From assembly GCF_056746865.1 (NCBI RefSeq), contig NZ_CM163382.1: a stretch of 64,000 nucleotides of DNA; one strand, 5' to 3'. Under the pieces are notes generated by a model, which had not been told where the DNA came from, did not search any database, and worked only from the letters and a program-made list of their open reading frames with translations. Within the stretch, counting starts at the first letter, position 1; the number at the start of each line of letters is the position of its first letter. Below are positions 18,124-36,093 of this stretch, piece after piece. The position numbers and the translations under genes were made by a program.

Positions 18124-18199
18124 TGGCTCCTCTGACTGGACTCGAACCAGTGACATACGGATTAACAGTCCGCCGTTCTACCGACTGAACTACAGAGGA
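18124..18199 (-). tRNA. asnW: tRNA-Asn (GUU)
   Basis: reverse complement identical to asnT. Confidence 0.95.
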
Positions 18200-19947: not shown

Positions 19948-20023
19948 TCCTCTGTAGTTCAGTCGGTAGAACGGCGGACTGTTAATCCGTATGTCACTGG
20001 TTCGAGTCCAGTCAGAGGAGCCA
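19948..20023 (+). tRNA. asnU: tRNA-Asn (GUU)
   Basis: identical to asnT; hairpin plus T-run follows at about 20030..20056. Confidence 0.95.
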
Positions 20024-22030: not shown

Positions 22031-22366
22031 GTTGCCTCCGGTTTTTAAGAATCGGCCCAAGTGCCGCCATTACTTACAACCAGATTGCAAGATGCTTGCC
22101 AGTTTTATTTTGGTGTTGATGTACAAGCTAACCAACTGTCAAATAAGAGATTATGATAGATTCGTCATTGGCTCTTTTTATCTGCAGTCGCATTCACCTG
22201 CCCTATAAAAGGAGGGTATGCACCACGATGGTTCATTACCCAATAAGATTGAAAGCTCACCACTTTGTTGAAATTGGCAGCAAACAAACAAAAAAATGCA
22301 TTTCACCCTTTGACATCACCATGCACTGCCATTAATATGCGCCCCGTTCACACGATTCCTCTGTAG

Positions 22367-22442
22367 TTCAGTCGGTAGAACGGCGGACTGTTAATCCGTA
22401 TGTCACTGGTTCGAGTCCAGTCAGAGGAGCCAAATTCAAAAA
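22367..22442 (+). tRNA. asnV: tRNA-Asn (GUU)
   Basis: identical to asnT, including the 24 bp upstream (TAATATGCGCCCCGTTCACACGAT). Confidence 0.95.
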
Positions 22443-27134: not shown

Positions 27135-27590
27135 TAGACTGGCCCCCTGAATCTCCAGACAACCAATATCACTTAAATAAGTGATAGTCCTGATACAAGT
27201 TTTTAGAGTAGTCATTAGTGAACAGATAATTGTTAACTTAGAACCAGTAAAATGCAAACGACGCACCACGCTGGGAAAATCGCTGCTATTCAGCAGAGTT
27301 TTGTACCGAGAATTGTGGCCAGCCACTTATTGCTCTCGCGTAAGCAGGTATCCCCATCGTTTACCAGTCCAGCACATCTTGTGGTCAGGCAGAAGAAGAG
27401 CAAACTGTTACTGGACTCACTGCATGCATGGTGGAGAAAAATGCCACGCTATCCAAAAATCCAGACTGGGAGAATGGTTCAGCTGTGTACTGAATCAGTG
27501 GGGCGCACTCTGTTATTACAGTGTTGACGGTCAGGCGGAGGCAGACATAATGCCGCGGAAAAAGCCCTTTGTGCCATCTGTCTCGGAAAT
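27135..27590 (+). mobile_element. IS2-group (IS3 family) left-end remnant
   Basis: first ~55 bp (TAGACTGGCCCCCTGAATCTCCAGACAACCAATATCACTTAAATAAGTGATAGTC) nearly identical to the IS2 end at 12468..12522, then a diverged OrfA-like reading frame. Confidence 0.55.
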
Positions 27591-27805
27591 AAAAACTTTA
27601 TGTTCTTCGGCGGCGAGCGCAGTGCACTGTTGTATGGGCTTATCGGCACTTGCCTTCTGAACGACATTGATCCGGAAGCGTATCTGCGCCATATCCTGAG
27701 CGTACTGCCGGAATAACCTTCCAACCGTATTGATGAACTCCTGCCATGGAACGTAGTTCTCACCAATAAATAAGCATCAATATGATTCTCCATTAACGCT
27801 TACCT
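27590..27805 (+). mobile_element. IS66-family right-end fragment (3' end of tnpC plus terminal repeat)
   Basis: encodes ...LLYGLIGTCLLNDIDPEAYLRHILSVLPE*PSNRIDELLPWNVVLTNK; ends in CGCTTAC (reverse of the GTAAGCG IS66 terminus). Confidence 0.55.
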
Positions 27806-27911
27806 TTTCTCAGGCTATTTTTGCTTTTTTTTGCTTTTCCCCGCCACTTTATGGTGATTATCACATCAATATACATCGATAGATATTAACGTAACTGAAG
27901 TGAGGTGAAGC

Positions 27912-29126
27912 ATGAAATTTGAACGCCATCATGAAATATTGAAACGACTCAGTAAATTCGGTTCTGTAAAAGTATCCGATCTGTCCAATAGCCTCAATGT
28001 AACGAAAGAAACTATTAGTTCAGATCTTAATGAACTTGCCAGGCTTGGCTATCTGACTCGATGTCATGGCGGTGCTTTTATCGTCCTAGACTCGCTTGAT
28101 ACTATTGCGAAAAATGAAATCGCTTATGCGCTTGAAAATTATGATACAGCCCAGGGAATAAAAAAAGGCCACTCAACTATGAAAAGTCAAGTATGCGTTA
28201 TTGGTTCGTTTAATGTTGATATCATCAGTTATTTGCCGAGGCTTCCCACTATCGGAGAATCGCTTCTGGCAAGTAATTTTATATTTTCACCGGGGGGAAA
28301 AGGCTGTAACCAGGCGCTGGCAGCAAGCTTTGCCGATACTGATGTTTATTTCATAACAAAAGTAGGTACAGATCACTTTAGTGATTATGCGATCAACTTT
28401 ATGAATTCGTCTAAGATTTATAAAAGTATAATTTATCAAACGAAAGAAACGCAAACCGGAACTGCCACGATCCTTGTTAATGAAGGTACTGGCGATAATG
28501 TTATTGCGATCTATCCCGGTGCCAACATGACAATGTCGTCCGATGAAATAACTATTCAGAAAGAAGCGATTATTAATTCTGATGTCATACTTCTGCAGCT
28601 CGAAACAAATTATACCGCTCTGCAACAAGCGATCACATTGGCGCAAAAAAACAGTATCCCGGTCATTATTAACCCGGCACCCTATAATGATATCGTCAAC
28701 GAACTTATTCAGGATGTTGATTATATCACCCCCAATGAAACAGAAGCTGGTTTACTGTCCGGCATAGACGTACACGATCTTGAATCAGCTAAACGAGCTG
28801 CAGAAGCTATCCACAATAAAGGGGTAAAAAACACGGTTATCACGCTCGGTAGCAAGGGCTCGCTCGCATTTGATGGCAAAAAATTCATTCATTCGCCAGC
28901 GTTTCCAGCGGTCGTTAAAAATACGGCAGGAGCCGGGGATGCGTTTAACGGCTCTCTGGCATCAGGACTTGCGAAAGGAAAATCACTGGAATCAGCACTG
29001 TGTTATGCCAGCGCCTTTGCATCCCTAGCGGTGGAGACAAGCAATGCTTCCGACATGCCTGAACATGAATCTGTGATACATCGAATTCAGAGTATACATT
29101 ATCAGCAAACTATTTTTACGCATTAA
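27912..29126 (+). CDS. DeoR-type HTH regulator fused to a PfkB-family carbohydrate kinase
   Basis: N-terminus SDLSNSLNVTKETISSDLNELARLGYLTRCHGGA (DeoR HTH); C-terminus with TPNETEAGLL and GAGDAFNG (PfkB signatures). Confidence 0.75.
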   Translation: MKFERHHEILKRLSKFGSVKVSDLSNSLNVTKETISSDLNELARLGYLTRCHGGAFIVLDSLDTIAKNEIAYALENYDTAQGIKKGHSTMKSQVCVIGSFNVDIISYLPRLPTIGESLLASNFIFSPGGKGCNQALAASFADTDVYFITKVGTDHFSDYAINFMNSSKIYKSIIYQTKETQTGTATILVNEGTGDNVIAIYPGANMTMSSDEITIQKEAIINSDVILLQLETNYTALQQAITLAQKNSIPVIINPAPYNDIVNELIQDVDYITPNETEAGLLSGIDVHDLESAKRAAEAIHNKGVKNTVITLGSKGSLAFDGKKFIHSPAFPAVVKNTAGAGDAFNGSLASGLAKGKSLESALCYASAFASLAVETSNASDMPEHESVIHRIQSIHYQQTIFTH

Positions 29127-29139
29127 GAAGGGACAGAGA

Positions 29140-29898
29140 ATGAATAACACCAAAAAATCACTAAAAGTGCTCTTTATTGGGGAATCCTGGCATATTCATA
29201 TGATTCATTCAAAAGGATATGACAGTTTTACCTCAAGTAAATATGAAGAAGGTGCGACCTGGTTACTCCAGTGTCTGAAAAATAGTCAGGTAGATGTCAC
29301 CTATATGCCAGCACATACGGTACAAATTGCCTTCCCTGAAGATGTGGCACAGTTAGAACAATATGATGCCATCGTTATTAGTGATATTGGTAGTAATACT
29401 TTCCTGCTACAAAATGATACTTTTTATCAGCTTCGCATAAAACCAAACGCTCTCGAACTGATTAAAGAATATGTGAATAACGGTGGTGGGTTATTGATGA
29501 TTGGCGGCTATCTCTCATTCATGGGAATTGAAGCAAAAGCCAATTATAAAAATACAGTTCTGGCTGATGTGCTCCCGGTTACGATGTTAGATGGTGACGA
29601 TCGTGTCGAAAAACCAGAGGGTGTTATTGCACAGCCATCACAACCTGAACATCCAGTTATTAAAGGGTTCTCTGAATATCCTTTTTTCCTAGGTTATAAC
29701 CGGGCGATCGCTAAAGAAAATGCTGAGGTGGTATTAACAATAAACAACGCTCCATTACTGGTCTTTGGTAACTATCACAACGGGAAAATAGCCTGCTTTA
29801 TGAGTGACTGTTCACCGCACTGGGGTACACAGCAGTTTATGTCCTGGCCGTTCTATACCGCGTTGTGGGTAAATATACTGACTCATATTGCAAGATAA
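29140..29898 (+). CDS. hypothetical protein, possibly class-I glutamine-amidotransferase-like (ThuA-like) fold
   Basis: 252-aa ORF 14 nt after the kinase stop; fold assignment is tentative, from memory only. Confidence 0.5.
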   Translation: MNNTKKSLKVLFIGESWHIHMIHSKGYDSFTSSKYEEGATWLLQCLKNSQVDVTYMPAHTVQIAFPEDVAQLEQYDAIVISDIGSNTFLLQNDTFYQLRIKPNALELIKEYVNNGGGLLMIGGYLSFMGIEAKANYKNTVLADVLPVTMLDGDDRVEKPEGVIAQPSQPEHPVIKGFSEYPFFLGYNRAIAKENAEVVLTINNAPLLVFGNYHNGKIACFMSDCSPHWGTQQFMSWPFYTALWVNILTHIAR

Positions 29899-29954
29899 TA
29901 ATAATAATGGGGTAACTCCAGTTACTCCATTTACTATAATAGAAGGATTGATGT

Positions 29955-30920
29955 ATGAAAAAGAATAAGTACTCAACTCCCTTATGGATGCTTGCCACGA
30001 TTCTTGCGGGTATGCTCTCCCCTATGCAATCAGCGGTGAATGGTCAATTAGGTCACTGGTTACAGGACGGTAATGCATGCGCAGTTATCTCCTTTGCCAG
30101 TGGTTTAGTCGTGATGTTTTTTATTATTATGGCGCGAAAAGAAACCCGGCAACAATTTGCGGCAATTCCTTCTCTGATTAAAAACCGAAAAGTTCCTCTC
30201 TGGAACTGGTTTGCCGGTCTCTGTGGAGCGATGGTGGTATTTTCTGAAGGCGCATCAGCCAGCGCACTCGGGGTCGCAACGTTTCAGACCGCACTGATCT
30301 CCGCGCTATTGCTGTCTGGTTTACTTTGCGATCGCTTTGGTATCGGTGTCGACGAGAAAAAATACTTTACCCCTTATCGCATCATCGGTGCATTATTTGC
30401 GGTTATTGCTACGATTTTTGTTGTGTCACCGCAGTGGCATTCTACCTCTTTCATTTTACTTGCCATTCTTCCGTTCTTAGCTGGTTTGCTTGCAGGATGG
30501 CAGCCCGCTGGAAATGCAAAAGTAGCTGAAGCTACGGGATCCATGCTGGTTTCAATCACCTGGAATTTCATCGTTGGATTTTGTGTTTTAGGCACAGCGC
30601 TAGCTATTCGTGTCGCATTAGGGCACGTCACTGTTCAATTACCAGATGTCTGGTGGATGTATCTTGGCGGCCCGCTTGGACTAATGTCTATCGGTTTAAT
30701 GGCCATTTTGGTCAGAGGTCTTGGGTTACTGATGCTGGGGGTTGCTTCAACGGCGGGCCAGTTACTGGGATCAGTATTGATTGACGTATTAATTCCATCG
30801 CTGGGCAATACCGTTTATCTGGTCACGATCATCGGAACACTGTTTGCACTGGTCGGTGCAATTGTTACCACTATTCCGGAATACAGAGCCTCGAAAACAA
30901 TGAAGAAAATGGAGGTATAA
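29955..30920 (+). CDS. DMT-superfamily membrane transporter (YdcZ/DUF606-like)
   Basis: 321-aa ORF, about 10 TM helices, internally duplicated halves. Confidence 0.6.
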   Translation: MKKNKYSTPLWMLATILAGMLSPMQSAVNGQLGHWLQDGNACAVISFASGLVVMFFIIMARKETRQQFAAIPSLIKNRKVPLWNWFAGLCGAMVVFSEGASASALGVATFQTALISALLLSGLLCDRFGIGVDEKKYFTPYRIIGALFAVIATIFVVSPQWHSTSFILLAILPFLAGLLAGWQPAGNAKVAEATGSMLVSITWNFIVGFCVLGTALAIRVALGHVTVQLPDVWWMYLGGPLGLMSIGLMAILVRGLGLLMLGVASTAGQLLGSVLIDVLIPSLGNTVYLVTIIGTLFALVGAIVTTIPEYRASKTMKKMEV

Positions 30921-30922
30921 TC

Positions 30923-31957
30923 ATGAAAGATTATCTACAAACTGTGACGGGCCCCGTCGCCCGTGAAGATATGGGGCTAACACTTCCTCATGAACATCTG
31001 TTCAACGATCTTTCCTCTGTTGTGGATGCTCCTTGCTATCCTTTTTCACAACGGCTTGTTGATAAAAAAGTCACGGCAGAAATCCAGTGGGCATTAAAAC
31101 ACGATCCTTATTGCTGCGCTGATAATATGGACCGCAAACCTATTGAAGATGTGATCTTCGAAATTAATAACTTTATCTCGCTCGGTGGTCGCACCATTGT
31201 TGATGCCACAGGGTCTGAGTCTATCGGACGAGATGCGCAGGCATTACGAGAAGTCGCATTAAAAACAGGTCTGAATATTGTTGCTTCCTCCGGTCCCTAC
31301 CTGGAAAAATTTGAAAGCCAGAGAATTCATAAAACGGTTGATGAACTGGCGACAACGATCGATAAAGAATTGAATCAAGGGATTGGCGATACGGATATTC
31401 GTGCCGGAATGATCGGTGAAATAGGTGTCTCACCGACATTTACCGAAGCCGAGCATAACAGCTTGCGGGCTGCCTCGCTGGCACAGATTAACAATCCTCA
31501 TGTGGCGATGAATATTCACATGCCGGGCTGGCTTCGTCGCGGTGATGAAGTACTCGACATTGTGTTAGGTGAAATGGGCGTCTCGCCAAATAAAGTCTCT
31601 CTCGCACACTCGGATCCGTCAGGAAAAGACGTGGCGTATCAGCGGAAAATGCTTGATAAAGGTGTCTGGCTGGAATTCGACATGATTGGCCTAGACATTA
31701 CCTTCCCGAAAGAGGGAATAGCGCCAGGGGTGCAGGAGACTGCCGATGCCGTCGCTCATCTCATTGAGTTGGGATACGCCGATCAGCTTGTTCTCAGCCA
31801 CGATGTCTTCCTTAAACAAATGTGGGCTAAAAATGGCGGTAATGGCTGGGGATTTGTTCCAGATGTTTTTCTGGCCTATCTGGCGGAGCGCGGCGTCGAT
31901 AAAACGATCCTCAAAAAACTCTGTATCGATAATCCCGGACGATTATTGACCGCATAA
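30923..31957 (+). CDS. phosphotriesterase-homology protein (amidohydrolase superfamily, Php-like)
   Basis: 344-aa ORF; metal-binding HEH at the N-terminus (LPHEHLF), later His/Asp ligands; start 3 nt after the transporter stop. Confidence 0.75.
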   Translation: MKDYLQTVTGPVAREDMGLTLPHEHLFNDLSSVVDAPCYPFSQRLVDKKVTAEIQWALKHDPYCCADNMDRKPIEDVIFEINNFISLGGRTIVDATGSESIGRDAQALREVALKTGLNIVASSGPYLEKFESQRIHKTVDELATTIDKELNQGIGDTDIRAGMIGEIGVSPTFTEAEHNSLRAASLAQINNPHVAMNIHMPGWLRRGDEVLDIVLGEMGVSPNKVSLAHSDPSGKDVAYQRKMLDKGVWLEFDMIGLDITFPKEGIAPGVQETADAVAHLIELGYADQLVLSHDVFLKQMWAKNGGNGWGFVPDVFLAYLAERGVDKTILKKLCIDNPGRLLTA

Positions 31958-31996
31958 AACCATTATCCCCCGGCACATTGCGCCGGGGGATGTCAA

Positions 31997-32335
31997 TTAA
32001 TACCCCGCCGTTAAATCATCCACCAAGCGCGAGTCGGATGCGCCGTACAACTCACCATCCGACCCAACCATAATGCTTTGCGTGCTGCCCATCGCCTCAT
32101 TCAGCGCCACTTTCTGACCTTTTGCTTCCAGCAGCTTGAGCGTATCCGGACTAAACCCTTTTCAACACGCAGCTCGTCCGGCAACCACTGATGGTGGAAA
32201 CGAGGCGCATTGGTCGCTTCGGCAACATTCATTCCACAATTGATGCTGTTCACCACCATTTGCGGCACGGTAGTGATGATCCAGCTACCGGTAACAAAGT
32301 GAGTACATAAAGGCCATACTGTCACGAACAGTGCA
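31997..32335 (-). pseudogene. ggt: gamma-glutamyltranspeptidase 3' fragment
   Basis: minus strand encodes ...TTVPQMVVNSINCGMNVAEATNAPRFHHQWLPDELRVEKG, then after a frameshift ...DSRLVDDLTAGY*. Confidence 0.7.
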
Positions 32336-32608
32336 AAAGTGGCTCTTCCTCAACCTAGGTGAAGATTTTCATGCCAGTGGACTCATTACCCTCCGCCTAA
32401 GTAGTTCAAGTCCGGCTCGACCATACATCTGGCGTATCAGCACCTTCAGGCGATTTACATGACCTTCGACAACACCAGTACTCCAGCGACTGCTGATTGC
32501 CTCACATATAGCCGCAGCATCAGCTTCCATCCCCGCAGCTACGCACCGAAGTTCTGCTGAGCCGCTTTCGTGGACCCGAGTGAACCAGCTGCTTAGCTGT
32601 GATTTATT

Positions 32609-33988
32609 TTAGGTTTTCAGAATACGGTAGAACTCGAGTACCAGTTGCTGCGCTATTTTCAACTCCGGTTCTTTTTCACACATCAGACTAATAAATCGGA
32701 AAGCATAATTTTCTTCACCCCTGATTATTCTCCAGGGCATCAACCAGCGGCTTACCCGTGACACTGAAGGAAGTCTTGCGGCAGTAGTAACCGGTGGGAT
32801 CCAGCCTTTATGCCATTTGGCAACAGCATCCCTGACGATGGTTTCACTGCCTGTAACCCCCCTGGCCACCATTTCCCGCCATATCCGGCCGGAGTTATAA
32901 TTACCACATTCTCGTTGCTCTTTTAACCACTCCCTCCATGGGTCCAGAAGCCCTCGCTTTGGAGGCCTGGTTGACATTTCAGGGAATGTTCCTGAACCCA
33001 CCCAGCGACTGACTGTCACTCGCGACAGGCCTGTAATACGGGATATTTCCCTGAAACTACATCCCTTGTTATGCAGGGCCATAACCTCTGTCCAACGCTG
33101 ATGCCGTTTTTTGCGGATGTGCTGTTTAAGGCGTTCCAGACGACGGAGCGATGCTACAGGCACAGATATTTCTGGCTCAGGTGATTTCTTCAGTGATAAC
33201 TCTCTGACAACAAGACGTATCAGAGGCATATGTCTGTACATCATTCGTTCAGGCTCATCACCAATATTTTTTAGCAGGTGCCATCGATCGGCCACCTGTC
33301 TGGCCTGAGGTGCACCTTCACGTGCTGCTGTCGCATAGACTCCACTGCGATCACGCGAGACAACCTGTATTTCCGGATATTTTCTGAACCAGGTCGCCAG
33401 CGTACGCTGATCACGGCCGGGAAGCAGGACGAGGGGACGGTGAGTATCAGGATTGACTATTAACATACCGCAGCAGTGGCCCCGATGCCACGCCCACTCA
33501 TCAATACCGACATGAGGCGCGCCTGACTGTTTCGTCTCCGGGGTATTGATAAGCCTGCGAAGAAGAGTATCAGCACTGCAACGGAGACCCACTGCCGTTG
33601 CAGCCCGTTTTCCAGCCTCACCTCCAGCTATTAATCCCAGTTGACGTTGTTAATTTTGTAACGCCTGTGAAGACTGCTGGTGTGAACTGGCGAAGGGAGC
33701 AAGCGACTCGGCAAAAATTTTACGTGAACAAGCCGGGTTACGGCAGTACCAGTGGCGGACGGAAAATACAAGCCATAGCGTCTGCCCTGAGCAGGGTAGA
33801 TGCTGTATCCGGCGCCGACGACAACTATGAACAGAGTCGCTACGCTTAAAGCATTCAGGACATTGTGCTGTTTTGCGTTTTCCGTGGAGATGGAGGGTTA
33901 TACCGTCAGAGCTAATAATTTGTCGACTGCATCGCCATCCGCAAGGTAACTGTAGAAGTGTCTTAAGAGAGTGCATTGCGTTGCCCAT
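32609..33988 (-). pseudogene. ISL3-family transposase, split by a frameshift
   Basis: ORF 33650..33988 has the zinc-ribbon N-terminus (LHLHGKRKTAQCPEC...HLPCSG...WYCRNPACSRKIFAE); ORF 32609..33592 has the DDE core (GIDEWAWHRGH...DRWHLLKN). Confidence 0.6.
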
Positions 33989-34271: not shown

Positions 34272-34679
34272 TCAGTTCCTATCCTTCCAGTTGCCCTCCT
34301 GCCCCCCCTCCCTGCTGTATACCCCGGTACCACAACTCGGGCAGCACTTTTCCCCCTCATAATTTTCGTCACACATCACACAAAACCACTTTCTCACCTT
34401 CACCGTATAATCCGGAACCGTCATACCCTGCAGATGCAAACGACGGGCCTCTTTCTCTGCCGGGTCAAGCCAGGTGCATCGCAGCAGGATTTTCTCAGCG
34501 ACAGTCATCTGGTCATGTTCAAACCACGGTGGTTGTCCGTCATTGCCCCGCTGAAGTGTTAACGGGCATCCACAGGACACACAGCACAAAACGTCCTGGC
34601 GGTTGTGCTTCGCTGCTTCTTTCGCCGTAACAAAATGGCCTTTGCTGTCATTCGCCATATAACAGTTCAGAATTCGCAT
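34272..34679 (-). CDS. Cys-rich hypothetical protein (paralog B of a tandem pair)
   Basis: 135 aa from ATG 34679 with AGGAGG RBS; same CxxC...PWFEH...CxxC layout; overlaps paralog A stop by 13 nt. Confidence 0.45.
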   Translation of the reverse strand: MRILNCYMANDSKGHFVTAKEAAKHNRQDVLCCVSCGCPLTLQRGNDGQPPWFEHDQMTVAEKILLRCTWLDPAEKEARRLHLQGMTVPDYTVKVRKWFCVMCDENYEGEKCCPSCGTGVYSREGGQEGNWKDRN

Positions 34680-35074
34680 ATTTCCTCCTGAGTTGTCCGG
34701 GGAATACTGAATCCTCCGGTCTGGCAGTGTGTGCAGTACCGCTCCCCATAATAATCGTGGTGACATTGTCTGCAGTGCCAGCTGGCTTTACGCACCACGG
34801 GTAAGGCATCCGGTACGAATTGCTGCAGACGTTTAATCAACTGTATTTCTCTGCGCTCCGGCCTGACATAAGGGCACTGTTGACCGTGCTCTGTCAGCCT
34901 GTCGTCAGTGTGTTCAAACCAGGGAAGTTCAGTGTCGTATTGCGGATGGTATCTGAGTGCACTGCCACACAAGTGGCAGGTGTAGTTAGCATAAGGTGCG
35001 GCCTGTGCAGTACGGGCGCCCGTCAGACGTCCGTTGCCATCAAGAGCGATAAAGGATTTTGCGTACATAGTCAT
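34667..35074 (-). CDS. Cys-rich hypothetical protein (paralog A of a tandem pair)
   Basis: 135 aa; CxxC...PWFEH...CxxC pattern; GAGGA RBS. Confidence 0.45.
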   Translation of the reverse strand: MTMYAKSFIALDGNGRLTGARTAQAAPYANYTCHLCGSALRYHPQYDTELPWFEHTDDRLTEHGQQCPYVRPERREIQLIKRLQQFVPDALPVVRKASWHCRQCHHDYYGERYCTHCQTGGFSIPRTTQEEICEF

Positions 35075-35327
35075 ATTCCTCAGCCGCCAGACGACACGCA
35101 GGCAACAGCCGTCCCGGTACGGGCAGCGTGGTCAGGGTGTGAATGGCGGTTCAGTTAAAATCTGGACTGGAGTTTGGGTAAAGCAGGCTGGTTGCTGTTA
35201 CAGCACTGTGGTTGTCACACAATGGAACACTGACGTAAAAAACAGTCAGTGGGCGAGTGGATACATCGTTGCCGCCAGACAACAACCCATACTTTTGGTT
35301 TGCCGGGTATTGGCGCGCCAGTCGTGC

Positions 35328-35897
35328 TCAACTCCGGCTACAGCCAAAATTGCGCTCACCGGTGCAGTGAGCTTTGGTATGTTCCTTCGCCAGATAGTCA
35401 GCACGTTCCAGCACCTGCTGAAAGCCAGTGTCATCATCGCGTTCCAGCCACACCGCCGGCCAGGCCGGGAAATGCACCAGCGTGGCATGGCACCCGACAT
35501 CCACTCCCAGGGCACTGCACCACGCCTGTTTAATCATCCCGGCCAGTGATCCCGGAGCACGGTAATCACCGGCACGACACCAGGTATCCCGGTTAACCAG
35601 CAGCATCAGGTGATAGTGTTTTTTACCTTTGCACTCCCCAAACTCCCGGGCCCAGACGTAATGCAGGGTTGTGGGATGCACGCGTTTACCTTCCCGATGC
35701 TTACGTTTCTGGTAAGCGTCGATTCGGGCTTTCAGGGCATTGATGAAGCGGGATATCACAGCTGCGTCCGTTGCTGCCGGTACATCCGGGAAACGCAGGT
35801 CAACCCGCAATGCCGTCAGGCGGGGATGAACATTCAGTGCGTGCCGCACCGTCTCACGAATACGTTGCTGCCAGAAGGGGTTGTATTTGTAGGTCAT
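35328..35897 (-). CDS. YagK/YfjJ-family (inovirus Gp2-like) protein
   Basis: ORF 35328..35933; likely start ATG 35897 (MTYKYNPFWQQRIRE) with GGAG RBS; family call from memory. Confidence 0.5.
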   Translation of the reverse strand: MTYKYNPFWQQRIRETVRHALNVHPRLTALRVDLRFPDVPAATDAAVISRFINALKARIDAYQKRKHREGKRVHPTTLHYVWAREFGECKGKKHYHLMLLVNRDTWCRAGDYRAPGSLAGMIKQAWCSALGVDVGCHATLVHFPAWPAVWLERDDDTGFQQVLERADYLAKEHTKAHCTGERNFGCSRS

Positions 35898-36093
35898 GGT
35901 TAAATCTCCGTATGGTTCATACGGAATAGCCACGTCGTAAAAAATGCGCAGAGTCCCTGAAGTGACCTCCGGCAGGACACTGTCTCAGGCACTCTGTGAT
36001 AACCCGAACGGTCGTCTCCGGACTGACGGTTGAATTTTCAGCGTTGTTTTTTTAATGTAAAAAACCGGTTACGGGTAAGGCTGTGAGGAGGGA

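Follow-up and report, generated by a model that had tools for sequence, protein, structure and literature searches.

What is processed by a compact bacterial gene cassette whose presumed regulator is itself a sugar kinase, and how is such a cassette controlled? The question is raised by four + strand genes at positions 27912–31957 of a 64,000-nucleotide stretch of contig NZ_CM163382.1 (NCBI RefSeq assembly GCF_056746865.1), hereafter called the window. The original prediction described an operon-like, island-borne catabolic unit that starts with a DeoR-type helix-turn-helix (HTH) domain fused to a kinase. The cassette is the Escherichia coli ortholog of the Salmonella cluster rikA(STM3547)-STM3548-STM3549-STM3550, and as such it is already known from the literature (McCormick et al., Mol Microbiol 2026, PMC13432705). 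The reading that we favour, tentatively and with somewhat less than even confidence, is that the cassette is a self-regulated, CRP-controlled and horizontally mobile catabolic operon, which frees ribose from a putative ribosyl ester or amide conjugate.

The cassette is collinear with the cluster of Salmonella diarizonae, with 77% DNA identity across 4.1 kb that include the downstream ggt gene. Its first gene product shares with that of the Salmonella Typhimurium cluster the length of 404 residues, the HTH-PfkB architecture, and the positions of D343 and Met90. The identical order of the four genes was found in Salmonella and Citrobacter and, by exact-protein look-ups, in Klebsiella, Providencia, Budvicia and Orbus, and a chance juxtaposition is excluded because the same order recurs in other genera. 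A literature search by the Salmonella locus tags retrieved a single paper, which reports that STM3547-STM3550 is kept in Citrobacter and Escherichia as well as in Budvicia and Proteus, and considers the cluster a possible pathway for a carbon source yet to be named (McCormick, Jabbar & Escalante-Semerena, Mol Microbiol 2026, PMC13432705). The original prediction had arrived at the same proposal of a catabolic unit for an unnamed substrate. The carriers of the cassette are Salmonella, about one third of complete E. coli genomes, Citrobacter, Klebsiella, Providencia and, according to the same paper, Proteus. The open reading frame (ORF) list confirms that the four genes share one strand, and each of them starts with ATG and ends with TAA. 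The intergenic spacers are 13, 56 and 2 nucleotides long, each one nucleotide shorter than had been predicted (14, 57 and 3). Shine-Dalgarno-like motifs precede genes 1 to 4 (GAGGTG, AAGGGA, GAAGGA and GGAGGT, respectively), and the G+C content of the cassette is 40–48%, as opposed to approximately 50% in the flanking DNA.

Domain searches of the four proteins placed the products of genes 1, 3 and 4 in the families that had been named for them. Gene 1 encodes an HTH_DeoR domain (PF08220, E 1.2e-12) and a PfkB kinase domain (E 1e-64), with the expected GAGDAF motif at residues 340–345, part of GAGDAFNG at 340–347, containing the catalytic aspartate. The full-length protein is 80–82% identical to its Salmonella counterparts. 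STM3547 was named RikA and is an ATP-dependent PfkB ribose kinase, the chromosomal copy of which is sufficient to sustain growth of Salmonella on ribose; the enzyme has a Km for ribose of 2 mM, requires D343, exhibits ribose-induced cooperativity as RbsK does, performs poorly with deoxyribose, xylose and xylulose, and is inactive with L-arabinose (PMC13432705). The ribokinase RbsK of E. coli (1gqt) matches gene 1 with an E value of 5e-52. All of the ribose-binding and catalytic residues of RbsK (PDB 1RKD, 1GQT) are kept in the kinase domain of gene 1, where they correspond to N101, D103, GGKGCNQ at 128–134, the glutamate of QLET (228–232), and D343. The activity of the Salmonella ortholog and the conservation of the ribose ligands predict that the product of gene 1 from the window is also a D-ribose kinase. 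RbsK, in contrast to gene 1, lacks a DNA-binding domain; its regulator is a separate LacI-type protein, RbsR, and its gene forms part of the rbsDACBK transport operon. A sugar, lactone or phosphoester had been proposed as the substrate. Free D-ribose is among the substrates of the orthologous kinase, whereas a lactone or phosphoester has gained no direct support.

The HTH domain of gene 1 is under selection. Comparison of E. coli, S. diarizonae and Citrobacter gave a proportion of nonsynonymous differences (pN) of 0.10–0.14 in codons 1–60, as opposed to a proportion of synonymous differences (pS) of 0.52–0.70, with a corresponding rate ratio (dN/dS) of 0.06–0.18. The pN of the kinase domain is 0.10, and purifying selection on the HTH domain is as strong as that on the kinase domain. 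Residues V30, E33, T34, R36, D38 and L39 are invariant across 96 representative homologs, every full-length homolog, even at 46% identity, retains PF08220, and a strong GAGG-type Shine-Dalgarno sequence precedes codon 1 in nearly all orthologous loci, for example GAGGTG before the annotated ATG. Because of this combination of low pN, retained domain, invariant residues and conserved Shine-Dalgarno sequence, the HTH domain has to be both translated and constrained. Its best NCBIfam match is AgaR (E 4e-10). Gene 1 shares the HTH_DeoR domain with the canonical repressors AgaR, GlpR and DeoR; however, the sugar-phosphate-binding DeoRC domain of these proteins (PF00455), which was not found in gene 1 by the Pfam search, is replaced by a complete PfkB kinase. 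The fusion had been considered unusual, but clustering of HTH-PfkB proteins at 90% identity gives approximately 100 groups in Enterobacterales and Orbaceae. Enzyme-repressor fusions are also known from BirA, which combines an HTH with biotin ligase, and NadR, in which an HTH precedes nicotinamide mononucleotide adenylyltransferase and ribosylnicotinamide kinase. Gene 1 resembles them in carrying an N-terminal HTH on a pathway enzyme, and by analogy the occupancy of the enzyme domain could set DNA binding, although the enzyme parts of BirA and NadR have no sequence relationship to the gene 1 kinase.

Conserved elements were found in an alignment of the 260 nucleotides upstream of gene 1 from seven genera. 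A 20-nucleotide tandem direct repeat (Table 1) is nearly invariant in all seven, even though synonymous sites are saturated. It has one match in the window, where 0.02 are expected, and seven cassette loci from six genera each contain its degenerate pattern a single time, always equally far from the ATG (two from E. coli and one each from Citrobacter, Salmonella, Klebsiella, Providencia and Budvicia); the Orbus locus has a variant of it. Operons of paralogous HTH-PfkB proteins contain other 10-nucleotide tandem repeats in this position; one of them, in Pectobacterium, is TTCCGTTTAC followed by TTCCGTTTCA. Conservation within orthologs and divergence between paralogs is the pattern expected of cognate operators, and the repeat is a candidate operator for the HTH of gene 1. 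Its T-rich tandem arrangement presumably resembles that of AgaR-type operators. Downstream of the repeat lies a CRP-like site, which encloses the palindrome GTGAT-T-ATCAC at 27854–27864. By manual count, seven to nine of the ten consensus positions are present at this place in all 12 orthologous and paralogous promoters, with TATGA-GTACAA-TCACA in Providencia as an example. The consensus promoter scan returned eight sites, as opposed to 10.2 expected from shuffled sequence, and is therefore without excess; a possible internal promoter before gene 3 (29878–29905) does not rise above chance. No known RNA element, and so no riboswitch in the leader, was detected by an Rfam scan of 27300–32400 with E values of up to 1. 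The GC-rich hairpin that follows gene 4 is likely the end of the operon, shared with the convergent ggt gene.

The gene 1 linker contains a single conserved position, residue 90. Of the 96 homologs, 81 have Met and 10 have Val there, together 91, whereas every other position around it is at most 50% conserved. The codon is ATG in ten and GTG in one of 12 loci, and AAAGG-type purine runs are located upstream of it. Translation from this codon would yield a 315-residue kinase-only isoform. Under the published growth conditions, the only RikA product in Salmonella was one of 35 kDa without the HTH domain (PMC13432705). That product and the strongly conserved HTH would be most simply reconciled if gene 1 yields two proteins, the full-length regulator-kinase and the kinase alone.

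Natural alleles bear on the same question. The window allele carries R36S, and its regulation may be impaired because the substitution hits an invariant residue of the recognition helix. In another E. coli allele, codon 81 is changed from CAG to TAG (window positions 28152–28154). This Q81* allele belongs to a cluster of 825 sequences (an example is L096, 178–1392, from Logan assembly SRR25465007), and splits gene 1 into an 80-residue HTH-only ORF and the 315-residue kinase that starts at Met90. In E. coli F467 (L015, 17956–18921), the annotation lists the cassette's transporter gene as a pseudogene, interrupted by an internal stop. The Q81* allele and the F467 stop indicate that the cassette is decaying or being rewired in parts of E. 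coli. R36S and Q81* would provide two natural regulator-defective alleles, and the 20-nucleotide repeat a candidate operator to accompany them.

Gene 4 belongs to the phosphotriesterase family (PTE, PF02126, E 2e-46), as had been predicted from its His-x-His motif. The motif is H23-x-H25, and the remaining metal ligands E166, H199, H229 and D294 are also present. The protein matches Pmi1525 of Proteus mirabilis (PDB 3RHG/4QSF), which has the same six ligands, with an E value of 3.4e-174 over residues 1–344 of both, and the same four genes occur in the related genus Providencia. Comparison with the php locus (yhfS-yhfX) had been recommended. E. coli Php (1bf6, 4lef) matches gene 4 only at E 1.5e-24 and only over residues 77–340, and the yhfS-yhfX comparison therefore concerns a distant paralog. 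The six ligands align with H12, H14, E125, H158, H186 and D243 of Php, over ranges that agree with the 1bf6 match. The score of gene 4 against NCBIfam PRK09875 is 108 bits, with a cut-off of 486. Orthology to Php (yhfV) or to the organophosphate hydrolase OPH was rejected, the Php match being far below that of Pmi1525. The known activities of Pmi1525 are those with synthetic esters in vitro; its best known substrates are reported by Xiang et al. (2015) to be synthetic methylphosphonate and carboxylate esters. Its esterase activity is also cited in PMC5341072.

Gene 3 was correctly recognized as a member of the DMT transporter superfamily. It consists of two DMT_YdcZ halves (PF04657; residues 10–154, E 4e-30, and residues 169–303, E 1e-15) with approximately ten hydrophobic segments. 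Gene 2 is approximately 83–85% identical to STM3548 (PDB 2GK3), which it matches with an E value of 7e-145. Its description as ThuA-like holds for the three-dimensional fold but not for the family: a Pfam scan at E values of up to 10 found GATase1_like (PF07090) alone and no match to ThuA (PF06283). According to the alignment and the secondary structure of an AlphaFold2 model, the nucleophile elbow is formed by G122-G123-Y124, which is invariant in 20 diverse homologs. The sole invariant cysteine, C224, belongs to a separate C-terminal motif, D-C-x-P-H-W. At least 15 polar residues are invariant, including H20, H23, H59, D82, E131, D223, C224 and H227, several of them in low-confidence loops of the model. 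NCBIfam contains no family for genes 2 and 3, and literature searches on PF07090/DUF1355 and on PMI1522-1525 returned nothing functional. Solved structures exist for the orthologs of gene 2 (2GK3) and gene 4 (3RHG).

The neighbourhoods of related genes connect the cassette to ribose. A contig scan with gene 1 gave two loci, and the remaining context was obtained from exact-protein look-ups and one metagenome scan. A close parallel is provided by the paralogous module orf408-orf245-orf32-orf48 (STM1382-STM1379) next to ttr in Salmonella pathogenicity island 2, in which a 408-residue HTH_DeoR-PfkB protein is followed by a PF07090 protein (STM1381, PDB 3SOZ, belongs to the module), and genes for a hydrolase and for a transporter come next. 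As in the cassette, the promoter of the module contains a tandem repeat; its CRP site (TGTGA-TTGAAT-TCACC) is close to the consensus. The module differs from the cassette in having an alpha/beta hydrolase of the proline iminopeptidase type in place of PTE and an APC amino-acid permease in place of the DMT transporter, and its HTH-PfkB protein has no Met at the residue equivalent to 90. Another paralog heads an operon with a nucleoside hydrolase and NupC, along with an MFS transporter and an M20 hydrolase. In Salmonella bongori (L008, 9336–14904), the paralog is accompanied by a sugar-type ATP-binding cassette (ABC) transporter and an ADP-ribosylglycohydrolase, a possible system for the uptake and cleavage of a ribosylated compound. 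In Rahnella (L007, 9310–12238) and Pectobacterium (L009, 9257–12048), HTH-PfkB proteins occur with an aldolase of the dihydrodipicolinate synthase type, DUF386 and an MFS transporter. This aldolase-linked branch has no obvious fit to the ribose theme, and its kinase may act on a different substrate.

PF07090 proteins point in the same direction. Those of Bacillaceae and Paenibacillus, which are 59–66% identical, adjoin LacI, PfkB, M20 hydrolases and Rbs-type ABC transporters. The metagenome scan gave 80 further PF07090 loci. Crude gene calling and clustering left 17 non-redundant loci whose flanks were adequate; false antisense ORFs, which arose in high-GC soil contigs (cluster c2), were disregarded. 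A ribose-related gene is present in 14 of the 17 loci, a hydrolase partner in 15 and a ribokinase in 12. The gene order is LacI-PfkB-PF07090-RbsBAC-PTE in a lineage with 33% GC, and PF07090-PfkB-PRPP synthetase in a locus linked to phosphoribosyl pyrophosphate (PRPP). Other loci comprise a nucleoside-type ABC transporter with nucleoside hydrolase, M20, PF07090 and M20, and NupC-PF07090. The sample consistently ties PF07090 and its hydrolase partner to what appears to be the metabolism of ribose or ribosides with aglycones handled by peptidases or esterases.

Based on these observations, the working of the favoured ribose-releasing operon can be proposed. The DMT transporter would import a ribose conjugate with an acyl- or amino-acid-like aglycone, from which the PTE-family esterase and the PF07090 protein would release free D-ribose. 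The PfkB domain would convert ribose to ribose-5-phosphate, a reaction shown for the 80%-identical Salmonella protein. The full-length HTH-kinase would bind the upstream tandem repeat and control the operon, with the kinase domain probably serving as the ligand sensor according to the logic of BirA and NadR. It is plausible that the putative regulator phosphorylates its own inducer. The CRP-like site may add catabolite control, and the internal start at Met90 would also give the kinase-only isoform, which fits the published 35 kDa product.

Several points weigh against this proposal. The substrate class is one that we infer, and the 17-locus sample behind it is small, crudely gene-called and composed for approximately one half of the same enterobacterial cassette. 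In one of the lineages, PF07090-DMT-PTE is accompanied by an AraC regulator and lacks the kinase. The PF07090 protein does not have the amidotransferase cysteine at the nucleophile elbow, and its function as a working class I glutamine amidotransferase was rejected for that reason. Pfam names the YdcZ-type proteins putative exporters. The form of RikA without the HTH was the sole one recovered in Salmonella, and because the Q81* allele is common and the window allele carries R36S, the fused regulator appears dispensable in some lineages. The kcat/Km of RikA for ribose is 0.2 min-1 uM-1, approximately 50-fold lower than the 11.2 min-1 uM-1 of RbsK, and the authors therefore consider ribose phosphorylation as possibly off-target or moonlighting (PMC13432705).

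The low efficiency of RikA, its Km and the view of its authors are also grounds for an alternative order of events, in which gene 1 phosphorylates the imported compound, or another furanose or furanose lactone, and PTE and the PF07090 protein hydrolyse the phosphorylated intermediate, so that the activity with ribose is a side activity. Such a pathway would resemble those of fructoselysine and fructose-asparagine, or the PTE-family phospho-furanose lactonases. Gene 4 indeed matches the phospho-furanose lactonase NF045706, but weakly (42 bits, with a cut-off of 630), and gene 1 scores just under the cut-off of the ribokinase equivalog TIGR02152 (284 as opposed to 299.65 bits). However, the ribose-contacting residues of RbsK are all conserved in gene 1, the other sugars assayed were poor or inactive substrates of RikA, and enzymes by which free ribose is released or consumed accompany the paralogs and the PF07090 proteins, namely nucleoside hydrolase, ADP-ribosylglycohydrolase and PRPP synthetase. 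Furthermore, the activities of Pmi1525 are reportedly those with non-phosphorylated esters. We consider phosphorylation as the initial step unlikely. A role in detoxification is very unlikely. In that case a toxic ester or organophosphonate would be the substrate of the PTE-family enzyme, the product would leave the cell through the YdcZ-type transporter, and the kinase and the PF07090 protein would play accessory parts. Such a role would agree with the exporter annotation and with the cited esterase activity of Pmi1525, but not with the CRP-like site in the promoter, the tight link to ribokinase in the sampled loci, or the replacement of the DMT transporter elsewhere by sugar-type ABC importers or amino-acid permeases together with LacI regulators.

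The regulatory part of the proposal has its own competitor. The HTH may be a relic, and the functional product the 315-residue kinase from Met90, in which case other factors regulate the operon and the repeat is an UP-like element or the site of another regulator. The conserved Met/Val90, the common Q81* allele, the R36S substitution and the T-rich composition of the repeat are all compatible with a relic. Nevertheless, a relic would not be expected to keep a dN/dS as low as that found here with pN near that of the kinase domain, six residues invariant down to 46% identity, and a strong Shine-Dalgarno sequence at codon 1. The differences in repeat sequence between paralogous operons also speak against it, and the C-terminally tagged 35 kDa band could also arise by cleavage in the linker. 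We regard a relic HTH as distinctly improbable.

If the ribose-releasing reading of the cassette is extended to its relatives, the cassette and its paralogs would be salvage operons for ribosylated small molecules, PF07090 a new hydrolase of ribosyl conjugates, and gene 1 a single gene that provides both a ribose-sensing repressor and, by way of the conserved internal start, a free kinase. We regard this broader proposal as speculative and rather doubtful. The compounds salvaged may be amino-acid or acyl ribosyl esters or amides from ADP-ribosylated proteins, O-acetyl-ADP-ribose, or modified nucleosides of the gut. The comparative results narrow the search for the substrate to ribose conjugates, and the Pmi1525-type enzyme is of additional interest for the hydrolysis of nerve agents. 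What is new here relative to the published description of the cluster is the constraint on the HTH, the conservation of residue 90, the conserved repeat and CRP-like site, the PF07090 neighbourhoods, and R36S.

Table 1 Features of the cassette and its boundaries in the window (aa, amino acids).
Feature	Position	Strand	Remarks
IS66-family transposase remnant, upstream cassette boundary	27360–27716	+	RefSeq annotation of 100%-identical strain, L001 11661–12017
20-nt tandem direct repeat, TTTTTGCTTT TTTTTGCTTT, candidate operator for gene 1 HTH	27818–27837	+	94 to 75 nt before gene 1 ATG
CRP-like site, TATGG-TGATTA-TCACA	27850–27865	+	8/10 against TGTGA-N6-TCACA; putative role
Gene 1, rikA ortholog	27912–29126	+	404 aa; HTH 5–56, linker 61–89, PfkB 92–382, catalytic D343
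Codon 36, AGT (Ser), R36S in HTH recognition helix of window allele	28017–28019	+	R36 invariant in 96 homologs
Met90 ATG, candidate internal start of 315-aa kinase-only isoform	28179–28181	+	Conservation in homologs
Gene 2, PF07090 GATase1-like protein, STM3548 ortholog	29140–29898	+	252 aa
Gene 3, DMT-superfamily transporter, two YdcZ-type halves, STM3549 ortholog	29955–30920	+	321 aa
Gene 4, phosphotriesterase-family metal hydrolase, Pmi1525/STM3550 ortholog	30923–31957	+	344 aa
GC-rich hairpin, 12-bp stem	31965–31991		8 nt past gene 4 stop
Gamma-glutamyltransferase gene (ggt), 3' remnant	31981–32290	-	Annotated ggt fragment
ISL3-family transposase gene, internal stop, downstream boundary	32369–33988	-	ORF list and annotation

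The cassette is accessory in E. coli, and megablast found it complete in 1909 of 5426 complete genomes (approximately 35%). It differs in this from the Salmonella cluster, and also in being part of an island bounded by insertion sequences (IS) next to cobU instead of lying at the ggt locus. The upstream backbone consists of nac, asnV, ldtA and cobTSU, followed by IS4 and IS66 fragments, and the cassette is followed by the ggt fragment, the defective ISL3 transposase gene and further island genes, which bears out the predicted island location. The adjacent cobUST genes were rejected as functional partners, because the cluster adjoins ggt, not cob, in other genera. In S. diarizonae and Citrobacter, an intact ggt converges on the cluster; the ggt remnant is 81% identical to it and is, judged by this similarity, a fossil of the former chromosomal neighbourhood of the cassette. 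DNA homology to Salmonella, Citrobacter and Klebsiella begins exactly at 27817–27818, the start of the tandem repeat. This boundary and the ggt fragment indicate that the cassette brought along its promoter region and part of its former neighbour when it entered the E. coli island.

The first 22.5 kb of the window contain one tRNA-Ser and four tRNA-Asn genes (1564–1653, 2645–2720, 18124–18199, 19948–20023 and 22357–22432), and asn tRNA genes are classic sites of island integration. Large ORFs occupy 2.7–12 kb, after the first tRNA-Asn gene. Past the ISL3 element, two overlapping zinc-ribbon genes and a gene of the "inovirus Gp2 family" are located at 34272–35933 on the - strand. Homology to L015 identifies genes for a GTPase, a dynamin-family protein, RdcB and a patatin-like phospholipase at approximately 47–52.5 kb. 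The zinc-ribbon, Gp2, GTPase, dynamin, RdcB and patatin genes are island cargo unrelated to the cassette.

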